A stretch of 64,000 nt of DNA from Pseudomonadales bacterium (lineage in GTDB: Bacteria > Pseudomonadota > Gammaproteobacteria > Pseudomonadales > UBA5862): positions 479,674 through 543,673 of the forward strand of contig JACKOQ010000001.1 of NCBI GenBank assembly GCA_024234215.1, given 5' to 3'. Positions 1,568 through 4,441 of the stretch are shown here, piece after piece (position 1 is the first letter of the stretch; every line of letters begins with the position of its first letter). Position numbers and translations under genes: made by a program. The notes under the pieces are model-generated. The model was not told the origin of the DNA, ran no database searches, and saw only the letters and a list, made by a program, of their open reading frames with translations.

Positions 1568-3490
1568 ATGAAGCAGCGCAACACACTTTCGAGTTCAGGC
1601 TGGCAATGGTGGCTGCTGCTGATGCTGGGCGCTGCGCTGGCGTTGACGTTGTGGCTCTACTGGCCTGGTCTGACCGGCCCCTTTCTGCTCGATGATGAGT
1701 ACAACATTGCCCCGCTGCTGCTGGGCAGCTACAGCCCGTCGGCGATCTGGTATGCGCTGACCCACAATGAGAGCGGCCTGTTCGGGCGGATGCTCTCCAC
1801 CGCCAGCCTGCTCTTCACCGGCTGGCTGCATGGCCCCGGCTCCTGGGGTTTCAAATATCACAACCTGCTGATTCATCTGCTGACCGGGCTGCTGCTGATC
1901 GGCTGCTGTGGCCGGTTGCTTGGCTGGCGGCTGGCGCAGCGCGAGGCATGGCCTCTTGCCGTGCTGGCCGGCATCTTCTGGCTGCTGCATCCGTTGCAGG
2001 TGAGCACGGTGCTCTATCCGGTGCAGCGCATGGCGCAACTGGGTGTGCTCTTCACGGTGGCGGGGCTCTATGTGGCGCTGCTGGGGCTGGAACAGGCCCG
2101 CGATGGCCGGCGTGGCAGTGCGATCGGGTTGCTGTTCTTTGGCTATCCGCTGCTGCTGGCGATGGCCGTGGCCAGCAAGGAGAGCGGGGTGCTGCTGCTG
2201 CCCTTGACGTTGCTGGCACTCGGCTTCATCTGGCCGACATTGCGACCACGGCAGGGAGTGATCGGACTGCAACGGAACTTCGCGCTGCTGCTGGTGCTGC
2301 TGCCGCTGCTGCTGGGCCTGCTCTACTTTGCCCTGCGCTGGCCGCGCCTGCTCGACTACAGCGGCCGGCTGTTCACACTGCCTGAGCGCATCTACACCCA
2401 ACTGCATGTGCTCTGGTTCTATCTCAAGCTGATACTGCTGCCGCGACTGGGCGAGATGGGGCTCTACCACGATGACTTTGCCATCGTCAGCCAGCCGTCG
2501 CTGCTCACCTGGCTGGCCGGCGCCGGGCTGGCTGCTCTGCTGGCCGTGGCCGGGGCGGTGCGCAAGCGCTGGCCGGTGGTGTCGCTGGGCATCGGCTGGT
2601 TCTTTGTCGGCCATCTGCTGGAGTCGACCCTGCTGCCGCTGGAGATGGTGTTCGAGCACCGCAACTATCTGGCGGCCTTCGGTCCGCTGCTGCTGGTGGC
2701 CTATGGCATCCTGACCTTCTCGAAACAGATGCGCCCGTTCAAATGGGGGGTGGTGGTGACGCTGCTGTGCAGCTTTGCCCTGATGACCTCGGCCCGCGCC
2801 AAGGTGTGGAGCGACGATGGGTTGCTGCAGGAGATGTCGGTGCAGGAGCATCCCGACTCGGCGAGGGCGCGCTCCTACTATGCCAACTATCTGTTCGAGC
2901 GCGGTGAGCTGGCCAAGGGGCGGGAGCAACTGGAATACATCCGCACCCGGCTGCTGCCCGATGCCGGGGTCACTTTGCATCTGATGGGCAGCCACTGCAA
3001 CGAGGCACAGATGCCGGAGCCGCTGCTGGTCGAGGCGGCGCAGCGGCTGATCGATTACCCGGTCAACCCCTATGCGCTGAGCGGCCTCAACATGCTGGCG
3101 CAGCGGCTGGTACATGGCAAATGCAACGCGATCGAGGCCGACCGGCTGTGGCAGATGATTGCCGGGTCGCTGGCCAGCGAGCAGTCGCGATCGAGCCGCA
3201 GCTACCTGCATCGGTTGCAGGCACAGGTGGCGGTGGCGCGGGGCGATCTGGCGGCGGCCTATGAGCAGCTCGACCTGGCCTATCAGGCCGGCGGCGGCAC
3301 GGCCGTGCTGATCGAGAAGGCCGACTTGGCCCTGGGTGCCAGCGACACGGTCACGGCGGAAGTGGCCCTCAAGACCGCCATGACCACCCAGGGGCGGCTG
3401 GCCCCCGACCGCTACAAGATCACCCGCCTGCAACAGATTCTCGAACATCAGCAACGGCAGCAGGCAGAGCAGGCGGCATCGCAGGGGTGA
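1568..3490 (+). CDS. GT-C fold glycosyltransferase of the PMT/TMTC-like type with C-terminal TPR-like domain (640 aa)
   Basis: About 400 aa of multi-pass membrane domain. An acidic first-loop motif FLLDDEYNI follows TM1, and an EHRNYL motif follows the last TM. These are typical of bacterial TMTC/PMT_2-like proteins. The C-terminal ~230 aa are a soluble helical repeat (ARSYYANYLFERGELAKGREQLEYI, VARGDLAAAYEQLDLAYQ). The start was chosen at MKQRN (1568), just past the pilA terminator. Confidence 0.7.
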   Translation: MKQRNTLSSSGWQWWLLLMLGAALALTLWLYWPGLTGPFLLDDEYNIAPLLLGSYSPSAIWYALTHNESGLFGRMLSTASLLFTGWLHGPGSWGFKYHNLLIHLLTGLLLIGCCGRLLGWRLAQREAWPLAVLAGIFWLLHPLQVSTVLYPVQRMAQLGVLFTVAGLYVALLGLEQARDGRRGSAIGLLFFGYPLLLAMAVASKESGVLLLPLTLLALGFIWPTLRPRQGVIGLQRNFALLLVLLPLLLGLLYFALRWPRLLDYSGRLFTLPERIYTQLHVLWFYLKLILLPRLGEMGLYHDDFAIVSQPSLLTWLAGAGLAALLAVAGAVRKRWPVVSLGIGWFFVGHLLESTLLPLEMVFEHRNYLAAFGPLLLVAYGILTFSKQMRPFKWGVVVTLLCSFALMTSARAKVWSDDGLLQEMSVQEHPDSARARSYYANYLFERGELAKGREQLEYIRTRLLPDAGVTLHLMGSHCNEAQMPEPLLVEAAQRLIDYPVNPYALSGLNMLAQRLVHGKCNAIEADRLWQMIAGSLASEQSRSSRSYLHRLQAQVAVARGDLAAAYEQLDLAYQAGGGTAVLIEKADLALGASDTVTAEVALKTAMTTQGRLAPDRYKITRLQQILEHQQRQQAEQAASQG

Positions 3491-3571
3491 TATTCTCCCG
3501 CTTCATCTGGTGGCGTGGCAGCGCGGCCATGTCGATGAGAGCGATTCGCGGAACGACGACAAGGACTTTTC

Positions 3572-4441
3572 ATGATCAGAGAGAGCGTCAGCCTGGTGAT
3601 TCCGGCCAAGAACGAGGCGGCCGGCCTGCAACGGCTGCTGCCGAGGTTGCTGGAGCATGTCCGCGCCGAGCAGATCCATCTGGTGGACGATGGTTCGACC
3701 GACGCGACCGCCCAGGTGGCCCGGCAGCATGGTGTCAGGCTGATCTCGCACCCCTACTCGATGGGCAATGGCGCGGCGATCAAGAGCGGCGCGCGCCACG
3801 CCACCGGCGAGCTGTTGCTGTTCATGGACGCCGATGGCCAGCACGACCCGGCCGACATTCCGCGCCTGCTGGAAAAACTCGATGAGGGCTATGACATGGT
3901 GGTGGGTGCGCGCGATGCGCACTCCCAGGCGAGCTGGGGACGCGGCCTGGCCAACCGGCTCTACAACCGCATTGCCAGCTACATGACCGGTCAGCGGGTC
4001 GATGACCTCACCTCGGGCTTTCGGCTGGTGCGTGCCCGCCGCTTCCGTGAATTCATGCACCTGCTGCCCAACGGTTTTTCCTACCCCACCACCAGCACCA
4101 TGGCGTTCTTTCGCGCCGGCTATCCGGTGGGCTACCTGCCGATTCATGCCGCGGCCCGGGTGGGCAAGAGCCACATCCGGCCGCTGCACGATGGCCTGCG
4201 CTTTTTGCTGATCATCTTCAAGGTGGGCACCCTCTACTCGCCGCTGAAGCTCTTTGCGCCGCTGGCCATCGCCCACTTCATGCTGGGTGCCGGTTACTAC
4301 CTCTTCACCTTCCTGACCCAGCACCGACTGTCGAACATGTCGGTGTTCATGTTCACCGCCGCCGTCACCATTTTTCTGATCGGCCTCGTTTCCGAGCAGA
4401 TCACCCAACTGCTCTACCAGCCGCGAGAGCGCGATGGCTGA
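3572..4441 (+). CDS. GT2 polyprenyl-phosphate glycosyltransferase (DPM1/ArnC/GtrB-like)
   Basis: VSLVIPAKNEA...VDDGSTD...LLLFMDADGQHDP...GYDMVVGAR, plus two C-terminal TM helices (LFAPLAIAHFMLGAGYY, VFMFTAAVTIFLIGLVSEQI). This is the ArnC/GtrB architecture. Confidence 0.8.
   Translation: MIRESVSLVIPAKNEAAGLQRLLPRLLEHVRAEQIHLVDDGSTDATAQVARQHGVRLISHPYSMGNGAAIKSGARHATGELLLFMDADGQHDPADIPRLLEKLDEGYDMVVGARDAHSQASWGRGLANRLYNRIASYMTGQRVDDLTSGFRLVRARRFREFMHLLPNGFSYPTTSTMAFFRAGYPVGYLPIHAAARVGKSHIRPLHDGLRFLLIIFKVGTLYSPLKLFAPLAIAHFMLGAGYYLFTFLTQHRLSNMSVFMFTAAVTIFLIGLVSEQITQLLYQPRERDG

Follow-up and report, generated by a model that had tools for sequence, protein, structure and literature searches.

A candidate pilin glycosylation pair behind pilA: a GT-C-fold membrane protein with a TPR-like tail and a family 2 glycosyltransferase

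A 640-aa membrane protein encoded immediately behind the major pilin gene is probably a periplasm-facing GT-C glycosyltransferase dedicated to that pilin, with its donor supplied by the product of the adjacent family 2 glycosyltransferase (GT2) gene. The coupling of a lipid-phosphate-sugar synthase to a periplasmic GT-C enzyme that glycosylates pilin is supported in silico, and the conserved order pilin, GT-C, GT2 in related genomes supports a functional link among the three products. The same synteny supports the first-pass annotation, which had read the two genes as donor-maker and transferase for the pilin.

The stretch analysed (the window, 64,000 nucleotides) comes from the metagenome-assembled genome of an uncultured Pseudomonadales bacterium. 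Its left end carries the following features:

1 to 746, minus strand: 5′ part of pilB, the type IV pilus assembly ATPase (PilB-type N-terminal domain read from the reverse-frame translation)
1066 to 1494, plus strand: pilA, major type IVa pilin, 142-aa prepilin (Pfam Pilin, 5.7e-17; N_methyl, 5.8e-10)
1518 to 1554, plus strand: intrinsic terminator or attenuator between pilA and the accessory genes (13-pair stem plus T-run)
1568 to 2821, plus strand: membrane domain of the 640-aa protein, residues 1–418, predicted GT-C fold (AF2, Foldseek, invariant columns, hydropathy)
2822 to 3490, plus strand: C-terminal helical-repeat (TPR-like) domain, residues ~419–640 (family-level TPR matches, model, Foldseek)
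3572 to 4441, plus strand: GT2, polyprenyl-phosphate glycosyltransferase-like, 289 aa with a C-terminal TM hairpin (PF00535, 1.1e-32)

pilB is transcribed divergently from pilA and is cut by the window start; its own start may be ATG 746 or GTG 674. PilA, the proposed glycosylation acceptor, has the leader MKTVQKG followed by FTLIELM, and Ser/Thr residues abound in its alpha-beta loop (T57, T58, T62, T65, S69, T70, T73, S74, S78 and S79 in mature numbering). Alignment with 52 linked pilins revealed no Ser/Thr position common to them. Between pilA and the 640-aa ORF lie 73 nt that contain a terminator-like hairpin (1518–1547, 13 pairs) followed by TTTTTGTT. The ORF (1568–3490) is intact, and its ATG at 1568 stands 20 nt past the stem and 13 nt past the T-tract, close to the 16 nt after the terminator first reported. 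An alternative GTG start at 1535 was rejected, as it falls inside the terminator stem and the homologues begin at the ATG position. Comparable hairpins occur in 41 of 52 related pilA–GT-C gaps against a mean of 3.45 in shuffled sequences. An attenuating effect on accessory genes has been described for terminators 3′ of pilin genes (PMC11841053), and the one seen here would hold accessory-gene expression far below the level of pilin.

To place the arrangement in context, we collected 80 related genome loci, 75 of which could be evaluated for an upstream pilin. The gene just upstream of the GT-C gene encodes a type IV pilin in 52 of the 75, and a pilin gene is located within 4 kb (2–3.6 kb upstream) in nine more, eight of which have a tandem GT-C copy as the intervening gene; tandem GT-C paralogues are present in 14 loci overall. 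Adjacent pilin and GT-C genes lie on one strand, separated by a median of 130 nt, and their pairing recurs far more often than chance would allow. A GT2 orthologue, 48–70% identical, was found in 43 of 80 loci, where it mostly comes next and usually starts 0–80 nt past the GT-C stop. Among loci whose downstream flank reaches 1.5 kb or more the count is 40 of 66, so that ~40% are without a nearby GT2. Where present, the GT2 is better conserved than the GT-C protein (28–48% identity). The order pilin–GT-C–GT2 spans many gammaproteobacterial lineages, with cultured carriers such as Lysobacter enzymogenes, Marilutibacter maris and Luteimonas salinilitoris, and in at least 14 loci the GT2 is followed by a flippase-like gene (PF03706, MprF-type) that is absent from the window; some loci read pilA–GT-C–GT2–flippase–pilB–pilC. 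The two-gene core proposed at first thus holds as regards the GT-C and GT2 pairing and falls short in leaving out a flippase, given PF03706 in many relatives and a MOP-family protein in the window.

The AF2 models of the 640-aa protein have pLDDT values of 90 and 86, and the former shows a polytopic membrane domain joined to an all-helical repeat tail. Secondary structure in the model and hydropathy together indicate ~11 hydrophobic helices in the membrane domain. When this domain alone was searched with Foldseek, the 13 best PDB matches were all GT-C proteins (STT3, PglB or ArnT) at probability 1.00; these matches are moderate rather than strong (TMq 0.41–0.51, E 2e-3 to 6e-2). Pmt1/2, DPY19, ALG3 and AftA rank below these 13, with Pmt1/2 matching partially, and the full-length model retrieves STT3, PglB and ArnT together with TPR proteins. 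The predicted structure thus supports placing the membrane domain within the GT-C fold class, as the first-pass annotation had it, and the placement outside GT-C that would have refuted that annotation was not obtained. At the sequence level, no link to GT-C families was found in Pfam, NCBIfam or the PDB: no glycosyltransferase family model in Pfam or NCBIfam matches the protein, a PDB search with the family profile retrieves no GT-C chain, and PMT_4TMC and MIR domains gave no match. PMT, PMT_2 and DUF1736 (E ≤ 1) match none of 46 family members, the window protein included, and the Wzy_C (O-antigen ligase) domain is absent from the protein and its 45 homologues.

Alignment of the 46 sequences reveals invariant DD, KE, HDD and ExxFEHRNY motifs. 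The LLDDEYNI motif noted earlier in the first loop of a polytopic N-terminal domain corresponds to residues 40–47, directly past the first hydrophobic helix, with D42 and D43 invariant and 5–6 residues after TM1. EHRNYL (residues 363–368, E363–Y367 invariant) is present as described, although not after the last TM helix: two more hydrophobic helices (~367–385 and 391–411) lie C-terminal to it, which places it in the last periplasmic loop. The other invariant positions are K96/N99/H103, HPLxVSTVLYxVQRM (141–155), K204 E205, Y285..P292, D302, H349..E352 S353 and E359..E363 H R N Y367.

The tail was initially described as TPR-like, which holds at family level. The Pfam TPR matches of the window protein itself are weak (E 0.047); TPR_19 is matched by 40 of 46 family members, and the family profile also matches consensus-TPR structures. 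In the model the tail consists entirely of helical hairpins, with which Foldseek retrieves TPR proteins. Two cysteines in the tail, C477 and C519, are invariant; together with K2/R4 at the N-terminus, this pair suggests that the N-terminus lies inside and the tail in the periplasm, where it is a proposed pilin-binding domain.

The neighbouring GT2 matches PF00535 and carries two hydrophobic C-terminal helices (~211–249 and 256–281), in agreement with the two TM helices first read from its sequence. Its closest solved relatives are ArnC (2e-22 over residues 5–263), GtrB (7e-14) and DPMS (1e-12), so that the original DPM1/ArnC-like label stands. Matches to the AglJ, ArnC, PpgS and PgfS models fall short of the respective cut-offs, with AglJ full-length and best, and no equivalog-level identity, from which the sugar could be read, was obtained (AglJ 118 against a curated cut-off of 325 bits, ArnC 78 against 529 bits). 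From its sequence we assign the GT2 to the DPM1/GtrB/ArnC/AglJ class, which combines a family-2 GT-A domain with a C-terminal TM hairpin, and it is most likely the maker of the lipid-phosphate-sugar donor.

In the model that we favour, the GT2 would sit on the cytoplasmic face, held by its C-terminal helical hairpin, and load undecaprenyl phosphate with a single sugar taken from a nucleotide sugar. The lipid-monophosphate sugar would then be flipped, in the window by the MOP-family protein at 6430–7815 and in many relatives by the MprF-type PF03706 protein. Catalysis by the GT-C protein may involve D42/D43 in periplasmic loop 1 and, in addition, the K204/E205 and E363–R365–Y367 loops, the latter two putative counterparts of the phosphate and metal sites in TMTC/ArnT-type enzymes. 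The sugar would be transferred to Ser/Thr of membrane-anchored PilA prior to pilus assembly, while the periplasmic TPR-like tail would grip the pilin. Weighing against this model are the modest fold scores, the missing sequence-level tie to GT-C families, the loci without a nearby GT2, the lack of PF03706 in the window and the variable Ser/Thr positions of the linked pilins.

In the window the pair opens a glycan island of ~17 kb, closed by a tRNA-Thr gene, so the glycan may exceed one common hexose. The island continues with:

4434 to 5660, plus strand: GT4 glycosyltransferase (Pfam Glycos_transf_1, 4.6e-42)
5644 to 6372, plus strand: SAM-dependent methyltransferase (Pfam Methyltransf_23/11), overlapping the GT4 stop
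6430 to 7815, plus strand: MOP (Wzx-like) flippase-family membrane protein, likely start 6529 (Pfam Polysacc_synt, 1.9e-8, above cut-off)
7812 to 15627, plus strand: nucleotide-sugar module (NCBIfam equivalogs above cut-off for RfbF, RfbG and RmlC; Pfam for the others), made up of the next eight genes
module start to 8579, plus strand: glucose-1-P cytidylyltransferase (RfbF)
8543 to 9652, plus strand: CDP-glucose 4,6-dehydratase (RfbG)
10480 to 11133, plus strand: RmlC-type epimerase
11130 to 12353, plus strand: sugar C-methyltransferase (Pfam)
12350 to 13474, plus strand: DegT aminotransferase (Pfam), which matches the ArnB model
13465 to 14154, plus strand: formyltransferase (Pfam)
14151 to 14873, plus strand: WbqC (Pfam)
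14851 to 15627, plus strand: CmcI-type O-methyltransferase (Pfam)
15690 to 16847, minus strand: second GT2 (Pfam)
16786 to 17847, plus strand: second GT4 (Pfam)
17871 to 18590, plus strand: second methyltransferase (Pfam)
18679 to 18754, plus strand: tRNA-Thr(CGT), the right-hand island boundary (ARAGORN)

The MOP protein may serve to flip the lipid-linked sugar. The GT2 reading frame and the start of the GT4 frame overlap by 8 nt, and methyltransferases recur downstream of the GT2 among related loci, one of which (L079) has the nucleotide-sugar module in identical order behind its GT2. Translational coupling ties the GT2 to the GT4, methyltransferase and MOP genes, a hint at a glycan of more than one sugar that the simple model does not explain.

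This layout bears on an alternative that we consider unlikely, in which the GT-C protein is an O-oligosaccharyltransferase: the GT2, the GT4(s) and the methyltransferase(s) would assemble a short methylated oligosaccharide on the cytoplasmic side, with undecaprenyl (mono)phosphate as its carrier, for export by the MOP protein and en bloc transfer to pilin, comparable to the haloarchaeal Agl pathway on dolichol phosphate, or else the GT-C would add several sugars stepwise, as proposed for TfpW. The overlapping or abutting GT2, GT4, methyltransferase and MOP genes, which form one operon, are consistent with this, as are GT4 homologues adjoining the GT2 in 12 related loci and a GT2–GT4–MOP set found again in two of the loci (L072 and L077). 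The best family model of the GT2, AglJ, is the starter of a Dol-P-linked oligosaccharide; the best fold matches of the GT-C are oligosaccharyltransferases, although the order of STT3/PglB over ArnT in Foldseek is within noise. Furthermore, TfpW has been argued both to polymerise and to transfer oligomers, and the tandem GT-C paralogues in 14 loci would suit stepwise addition. Set against this, the commonest module contains only the GT-C and GT2 with or without the flippase-like gene, and most loci are without a GT4. We know of no bacterial precedent for GT4 extension of an Und-P-linked monosaccharide, which also counts against an oligosaccharide donor.

The location of the pair inside a ~17 kb, tRNA-Thr-bounded island with O-antigen-like sugar genes would also fit action on a target other than pilin, either O antigen or LPS in the manner of GtrABC or ArnT or another periplasmic protein, with the pair lying near pilA because the pilA–tRNA-Thr gap is an insertion hot spot; O-antigen modifiers are likewise composed of a GT2, a flippase and a GT-C (PMC11127046). 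We regard this as improbable: same-strand adjacency to pilin with the conserved attenuator recurs in 52–61 of 75 loci, in many orders and mostly without an island, the order pilA–GT-C–GT2–flippase–pilB–pilC is seen in some of them, and the TPR tail fits a protein acceptor. That the 640-aa protein instead lacks catalytic activity and acts as a chaperone or in pilus assembly, as a TPR scaffold anchored in the membrane with a role like that of TfpY/TfpX or PilF, can be set aside almost entirely, since its GT-C fold, its invariant acidic and basic residues in exactly those loops where GT-C enzymes carry out catalysis and its tight coupling to a lipid-phosphate-sugar synthase-like GT2 outweigh the TPR domain, the adjoining pilA, the presence of PilF (2ho1) among the TPR fold matches and the lack of any matching glycosyltransferase family model.

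Returning to the pilin-dedicated GT-C glycosyltransferase, the closest known system by published description is TfpW of P. aeruginosa group IV (Pa5196, PA7). TfpW is a 646-aa protein encoded after pilA and needed for pilin O-glycosylation, with a DDX motif in loop 1, a periplasmic TPR tail and a GT-C fold modelled on ArnT (10.1101/2020.04.19.049825). The two proteins have in common their architecture, their position behind pilA, ~11 TM helices and the DDX motif (D42 D43 E44 here), and TfpW homologues adjoin pilA in several species. The TfpW motif YX6PFX7P was found in none of the 46 family members, which instead show Y-x6-P-[RQ]-L-x-[DE]-M-x-L-[FY]-H-D-D; Y285-x6-P292 is invariant and, unlike in TfpW, is followed by [RQ]-L...HDD. 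The conserved partner gene here is a GT2; TfpW works with the D-arabinofuranose pathway. Phosphoribosyltransferase, DprE1, DprE2 and GtrA genes did not recur among the island genes or in the 6.5 kb downstream of 26 GT2-less loci, the latter judged from the 25 most frequent Pfam families listed, which single occurrences could escape. The D-arabinofuranose genes of PA7 are themselves unlinked to pilA, so their local absence is compatible with either reading. No protein from the species of the TfpW preprint is among the best 120 matches listed.

The same layout of 11 TM helices and a lumenal TPR tail is found in TMTC1–4 (CAZy GT105), eukaryotic protein O-mannosyltransferases that work with DPM1. 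Their motif series comprises DD and S-H-K-S-Y-R-P in EL1, K-E-T in EL3, D-W in EL4 and E-R-x-x-Y in EL5 (PMC7801869). By eye, a TMTC-like order can be followed in our protein (D42D43; G-R74-(P); K204E205; H-D301-D302; E363-H-R365-N-Y367), as can a shared H-P...R after TM3. The TMTC donor is made by a DPM1-class GT2, and a comparable GT2 adjoins the 640-aa gene. In contrast to TMTC, the 46 members have no DUF1736, the TM7–TM8 loop segment, and the proposed acceptor is pilin rather than cadherins. The early TMTC/PMT-like label does not extend to sequence-level membership of GT39, GT83 or GT105. The lipid A aminoarabinose pathway (ArnB, ArnA formyltransferase, ArnC, ArnE/F, ArnT) offers a further parallel: ArnC is the best solved relative of the GT2, ArnT is among the GT-C fold matches, and the DegT aminotransferase and formyltransferase of the island recall it. 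Here, however, the proposed acceptor is a protein and not lipid A, the GT-C bears a TPR tail, and CDP-glucose is the starting point of the sugar pathway.

Actinobacterial Pmt (GT39) with Ppm1, and yeast PMT, perform Ser/Thr O-glycosylation from a polyprenyl-phosphate monosaccharide and have an acidic pair in loop 1 of the GT-C domain. The 640-aa protein differs in being without PMT, PMT_4TMC and MIR, and the TPR tail stands in place of MIR. TfpO/PilO and PglL also glycosylate pilin, and tfpO likewise lies right behind pilA; these belong to the unrelated Wzy_C type and draw on Und-PP-linked O units, whereas the GT-C here is predicted to be of the STT3/ArnT type. GtrA/GtrB/GtrC and the GT136 pentofuranose systems co-encode a synthase, a flippase and a periplasmic GT-C (PMC11127046), and relatives of the window locus carry the same trio, like these three-component extracytoplasmic systems. 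They differ in that the proposed target is pilin and not O antigen, the GT-C bears TPR repeats, and the flippase candidate is PF03706 (MprF-type) or MOP rather than GtrA, SMR or MATE. The recurrence of pilin, GT-C and GT2 in dozens of bacteria very probably marks a candidate pilus glycosylation system that is as yet unannotated.

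The window begins inside pilB, which diverges from the pilin gene pilA, and the genes that concern us follow on the forward strand:

Window start to 746 or 674 (alternative starts), minus: 5′ part of pilB
1066..1494, plus: pilA, 142-aa prepilin with Pfam Pilin and N_methyl matches
1568..3490, plus: GT-C gene, 640 aa, from the ATG at 1568
3572..4441, plus: GT2 gene, 289 aa, its stop overlapping the GT4 start
4434..5660, plus: GT4 gene, its stop overlapping the methyltransferase start
5644..6372, plus: methyltransferase gene, its start overlapped by GT4

PilA has the leader MKTVQKG followed by the mature N-terminus FTLIELM. 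Downstream of its gene, a 13-pair hairpin (1518..1547) runs into TTTTTGTT, which together form a predicted intrinsic terminator of textbook form, and the GT-C start lies 13 nt beyond the T-tract. A longer reading of GT-C from the GTG at 1535 was discarded, as its start would fall within the hairpin and homologues align from ATG 1568. The 619-aa ORF antisense to the GT-C gene (1595..3454, minus strand) is rich in Arg, Gln and Pro, a composition typical of high-GC shadow ORFs, and is therefore not considered a gene. GT-C itself, from an uncultured member of the Pseudomonadales, is deposited as a ‘hypothetical protein’ (MCC6529995.1). The coordinates and motifs reported in the first-pass annotation are right with one exception. 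LLDDEYNI occupies residues 40–47 and EHRNYL residues 363–368, but the latter does not follow the last transmembrane (TM) helix as claimed; two further hydrophobic helices come after it, placing it in the last periplasmic loop.

Homologues of GT-C number in the hundreds, are about 610–660 aa long and come almost exclusively from Gammaproteobacteria. A membrane-domain profile retrieves 7,853 representative clusters at E <= 1e-30, and relaxing the threshold to E <= 1e-3 raises the number to 58,252, which places GT-C in a very large, poorly annotated superfamily. When one genome per species was scanned, more than 550 stretches encoding relatives were found, in Pseudomonadales, Xanthomonadales, Legionellales/Berkiella, SAR86, sulfur oxidisers and others; a tblastn search of plasmids gave no match. 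NCBI annotates family members as ‘hypothetical’ or ‘TPR protein’, and several homologues (P0023, P0061, P0066, P0083 and P0294) carry the JGI label ‘protein O-mannosyl-transferase’. The membrane domain is covered by no Pfam or NCBIfam model. Scans of GT-C and 46 homologues with both collections returned nothing besides TPR matches, weak in the window protein itself (Pfam, E 0.047), and no PMT, PMT_2 or DUF1736 match was obtained in any of the 46 family members scanned. Sequence and full-length-profile searches of the PDB likewise recovered TPR proteins only, and the membrane-domain profile matched no PDB entry, GT-C chains included.

Across an alignment of 46 sequences (the window protein and 45 homologues; mean column identity 43%), invariant positions comprise D42, D43, G70, R74, K96, N99 and H103, followed by W138, P142 and S146–M155 (HPLxVSTVLYxVQRM). 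K204 is invariant and E205 nearly so, and further invariant residues are Y285, P292, D302, H349, E352, S353, L358, E359 and F362–Y367 (FEHRNY). In the tail, C477 and C519 (codons within window 2996..3124) are also invariant in the 46 homologues; a disulfide between them would fit a periplasmic location of the TPR-like domain.

To place the fold, we modelled GT-C with AlphaFold2 from the 46-sequence alignment (pLDDT 90.2, pTM 0.89), revealing about 11 membrane helices, a helical first loop and then about 220 residues of helical hairpins. TPR proteins dominate the Foldseek matches of the whole model, with STT3, PglB and ArnT also listed. For a second model of residues 1–418 alone (pLDDT 85.8), the best 13 PDB matches are exclusively GT-C enzymes, namely yeast and human STT3, PglB and ArnT (probability 1.00, query TM-score 0.41–0.51, E 2e-3 to 6e-2). 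Pmt1/Pmt2, DPY19, ALG3 and AftA appear lower in this list, and unrelated transporters reach a TM-score of 0.17 at most. The predicted fold of the membrane domain is thus that of GT-C enzymes of the STT3/ArnT/PMT class, with moderate scores and clear specificity, and the proposed GT-C-type protein with a C-terminal TPR-like domain is borne out by both fold search and predicted structure. The assignment to GT39, GT83 or GT105 suggested for checking is a different matter: Foldseek returns a GT-C fold, yet family-model tests give membership in none of the three. Several other identities were discarded. An O-antigen polymerase would be Wzy-like rather than STT3/ArnT-like, a TfpO/PglL-type enzyme would carry the Wzy_C domain that is absent here, and a pure TPR scaffold is contradicted by the GT-C fold and the invariant catalytic-loop residues. 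The cyanobacterial pilin Ogt was rejected as a relative, being a cytoplasmic GT41 enzyme.

The gene after GT-C, beyond a gap of 81 nt, encodes a GT2 with two hydrophobic C-terminal helices, as first described. This protein matches PF00535 at 1e-32. Among solved structures it is closest to three of ArnC (E 2e-22 to 2e-18, residues 5–263), with GtrB/sll0501 (7e-14) and Dol-P-Man synthase from Pyrococcus (1e-12) next. The highest-scoring NCBIfam models are AglJ (a full-length match), ArnC, a haloarchaeal Dol-P-hexose transferase, PpgS and PgfS, each match falling far short of the model's equivalog cut-off. Together, these relatives, family matches and C-terminal helices place GT2 in the predicted class of enzymes that charge polyprenyl phosphate with one sugar.

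The main new evidence comes from comparative genomics. We fetched the best 80 of the more than 550 stretches encoding relatives, each with 10 kb flanks. In 52 of the 80 loci, the GT-C match is preceded by a same-strand type IV pilin gene that ends no more than 700 nt away (median gap 130 nt), and a pilin lies 2–3.6 kb upstream in nine further loci, eight of which have a second GT-C copy in between; in five loci the upstream sequence is too short for scoring. Between the pilin and GT-C genes, a hairpin with a T-run is present in 41 of the 52 loci, whereas shuffled controls average 3.45 and never exceed 8. Such conservation agrees with the published description of terminators behind pilin genes as elements that hold down the expression of accessory genes (PMC11841053). 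A homologue of the window GT2 occurs in 45 of the 80 loci, mostly 0–80 nt past the GT-C stop, and in 40 of the 66 loci whose downstream flank extends for 1.5 kb or more. It is 48–70% identical in 43 of the 45, whereas GT-C is conserved at 28–48%. In the loci without GT2, no D-arabinofuranose (D-Araf) pathway genes recur among the Pfam families listed.

The commonest families after GT2 are PF03706 (15 ORFs in at least 14 loci), GT4 (12), SAM methyltransferases (11) and pilB/pilC. The PF03706 proteins (LPG_synthase_TM, MprF flippase-type) are membrane proteins of about 300–350 aa, exemplified by L029 12785..13768, L033 12791..13777, L042 12749..13807 and L021 6217..7149, and are candidate flippases for a lipid-linked sugar. 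Loci of the Berkiella/Legionellales type (for example L029, L030, L033, L037 and L042) read pilA(-pilA)-GT-C-GT2-PF03706-pilB-pilC, so the glycosylation trio sits within the core pilus operon. From these counts, the conserved unit is pilin, attenuator, GT-C/TPR and GT2, often followed by a flippase-like gene. Three-component extracytoplasmic glycosylation systems share this layout (PMC11127046), here attached to a pilin. Cultured bacteria with the pilin, GT-C and GT2 triad include Lysobacter enzymogenes 521, Marilutibacter maris KCTC 42381, Luteimonas salinilitoris, Vulcaniibacterium gelatinicum and Luteibacter sahnii.

Tandem GT-C paralogues are found in 14 loci altogether. Loci with tandem GT-C/TPR genes include L015, L045, L049, L054, L055, L060, L062, L065, L066, L067, L073, L079 and L080; there are two copies, or three in L080, usually situated between pilA and GT2. 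In L011, a second, weaker GT-C match lies some 6 kb upstream in the opposite orientation. The copies may serve different sites, different pilins or successive sugars.

The closest described system, compared by its published description, appears to be P. aeruginosa TfpW (AAM52060.1 in PA7), which belongs to group IV strains. This protein is 646 aa long, with 11 TM helices predicted; loop 1 holds a DDX motif and the TPR tail is periplasmic. Its gene follows pilA, it has been modelled on ArnT, and pilA-adjacent homologues exist in several genera (10.1101/2020.04.19.049825). As described, all of these architectural and contextual features are present in the window GT-C. In contrast, none of the 46 family members contains YX6PFX7P, a motif described as conserved among TfpW and related proteins, and TfpW works with a DprE1/DprE2/phosphoribosyltransferase route to D-arabinofuranose, whereas the conserved partner here is GT2. 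No protein from the TfpW-homologue species named in the preprint is among the best 120 matches of two homologue searches, one seeded with the Cellvibrionaceae homologue P0093 so as to reach the TfpW homologue of Teredinibacter; this is weak evidence because few matches bear names. The invariant residues also fall, in a by-eye comparison rather than a statistical alignment, in the TMTC motif order of Eisenhaber et al.: DD in loop 1, R-P later in that loop, KE in loop 3, an acidic pair in loop 4 and E-R-x-x-Y in the TM9–TM10 loop of a protein with 11 TM helices and a lumenal TPR tail (PMC7801869). By analogy, GT-C and GT2 would share the working logic of TMTC/PMT with DPM1 and of ArnT with ArnC.

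We propose that GT2 charges undecaprenyl phosphate at the cytoplasmic face, that the lipid-linked sugar is flipped across the membrane, and that GT-C would transfer it to PilA Ser/Thr in the periplasm through its D42/D43, KE and EHRNY loops, with the TPR tail docking the pilin. That GT2 and a periplasmic GT-C glycosylate the pilin is probable, and the donor-maker and transferase pair put forward in the first-pass annotation gains in silico support from fold, motifs and, above all, synteny. The alpha-beta loop of the window PilA is rich in Ser and Thr (T57, T58, T62, T65, S69, T70, T73, S74, S78 and S79) and is the region where TfpW modifies its own pilin, at Thr64/Thr66 (10.1101/2020.04.19.049825). 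Among 53 linked pilins there is no conserved acceptor Ser/Thr column, the loop being only diffusely Ser/Thr-rich.

All genes between pilA and tRNA-Thr(CGT) are glycan-related, and beyond the methyltransferase the order is:

6430..7815: MOP/Wzx-family protein, after GT2, GT4 and the methyltransferase
7812..15627: complete CDP-sugar module, after the MOP protein
Module gene 1: glucose-1-P cytidylyltransferase (RfbF)
Module gene 2: CDP-glucose 4,6-dehydratase (RfbG)
Module genes 3–4: RmlC-type epimerase; sugar C-methyltransferase
Module genes 5–6: DegT aminotransferase; formyltransferase
Module genes 7–8: WbqC; CmcI-type O-methyltransferase
Beyond the module: second GT2 (minus strand), second GT4, second methyltransferase
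18679..18754: tRNA-Thr(CGT), right end of the island

From these genes, the predicted product is an amino-dideoxyhexose of unusual kind, C-methylated and N-formylated. An initiating phosphoglycosyltransferase, Wzy and a Wzy_C ligase are all absent from the island, and the MOP protein is the obvious flippase candidate here because the window has no PF03706 homologue. Directly past the tRNA, a 906-aa ORF (18767..21487, minus strand) fuses a C-terminal GNAT acetyltransferase to a region resembling ADP-forming acyl-CoA synthetases (CoA_binding, Succ_CoA_lig, ATP-grasp_5), the domain order of Pat-type protein acetyltransferases.

One related locus, L079 (Natronospirales MAG JAJYUH010000005.1, 6475..20342), reads pilA-pilA-GT-C-GT-C-(PIN)-GT2 and directly afterwards carries the CDP-sugar module in the window's order, at 47–70% identity per protein, with a hexapeptide acyltransferase (acetyltransferase) replacing the formyltransferase and no other glycosyltransferase between GT2 and the module. 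This arrangement suggests, without proving, that the window's module feeds the pilin system, and also suggests that core and module travel jointly between orders. The GT2-GT4-(methyltransferase)-MOP sub-module of the window (4434..7815) recurs in Pseudoxanthomonas loci L072 and L077, on the opposite strand and 4–7 kb from GT-C, and the overlap of its three upstream genes suggests translational coupling. Tentatively, all of the 17 kb that run from pilA to tRNA-Thr may form a single pilin glycosylation island, an ‘Arn-like pathway aimed at a protein’ leading from sugar module to ArnC-like GT2, MOP protein and GT-C. The sugar would then be CDP-glucose-derived, C-methylated, 4-aminated, N-formylated and possibly O-methylated, and GT4 may extend it while attached to the monophosphate carrier, similarly to haloarchaeal Agl glycosylation. 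If so, the core and sugar module of L079 would represent an island mobile between orders as a unit.

In the main alternative, the same system would transfer a short oligosaccharide or add several sugars. This version, which we regard as rather unlikely, draws support from the TfpW precedent, from the coupling of GT4, methyltransferase and MOP genes to GT2, and from the presence of GT-C in tandem copies. A target other than pilin is improbable in view of the synteny, and a non-catalytic GT-C, set against its fold and invariant loop residues, is hardly credible.

To our knowledge, only two types of pilin glycosylation enzyme are known, TfpO/PglL and TfpW. As TfpW already established GT-C/TPR pilin glycosyltransferases, the probable GT-C and GT2 pilin system is no new category; judged from sequence, it appears to represent a variant of its own, both widespread and unannotated, tied to a lipid-phosphate-sugar synthase and often a flippase-like protein, and set apart from TfpW by the latter's description. 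Work cited in PMC11841053 indicates that pilin glycosylation alters pilus surface chemistry and shields P. aeruginosa from pilus-specific phages. In the window, the system heads an unusual sugar-biosynthesis island. If confirmed, it would offer PF03706 or MOP proteins as candidate flippases, a component not identified for TfpW, as well as a simple three-gene cassette for protein glycoengineering, and would constitute a widespread bacterial counterpart to the eukaryotic DPM1 and TMTC/PMT logic of O-glycosylation.
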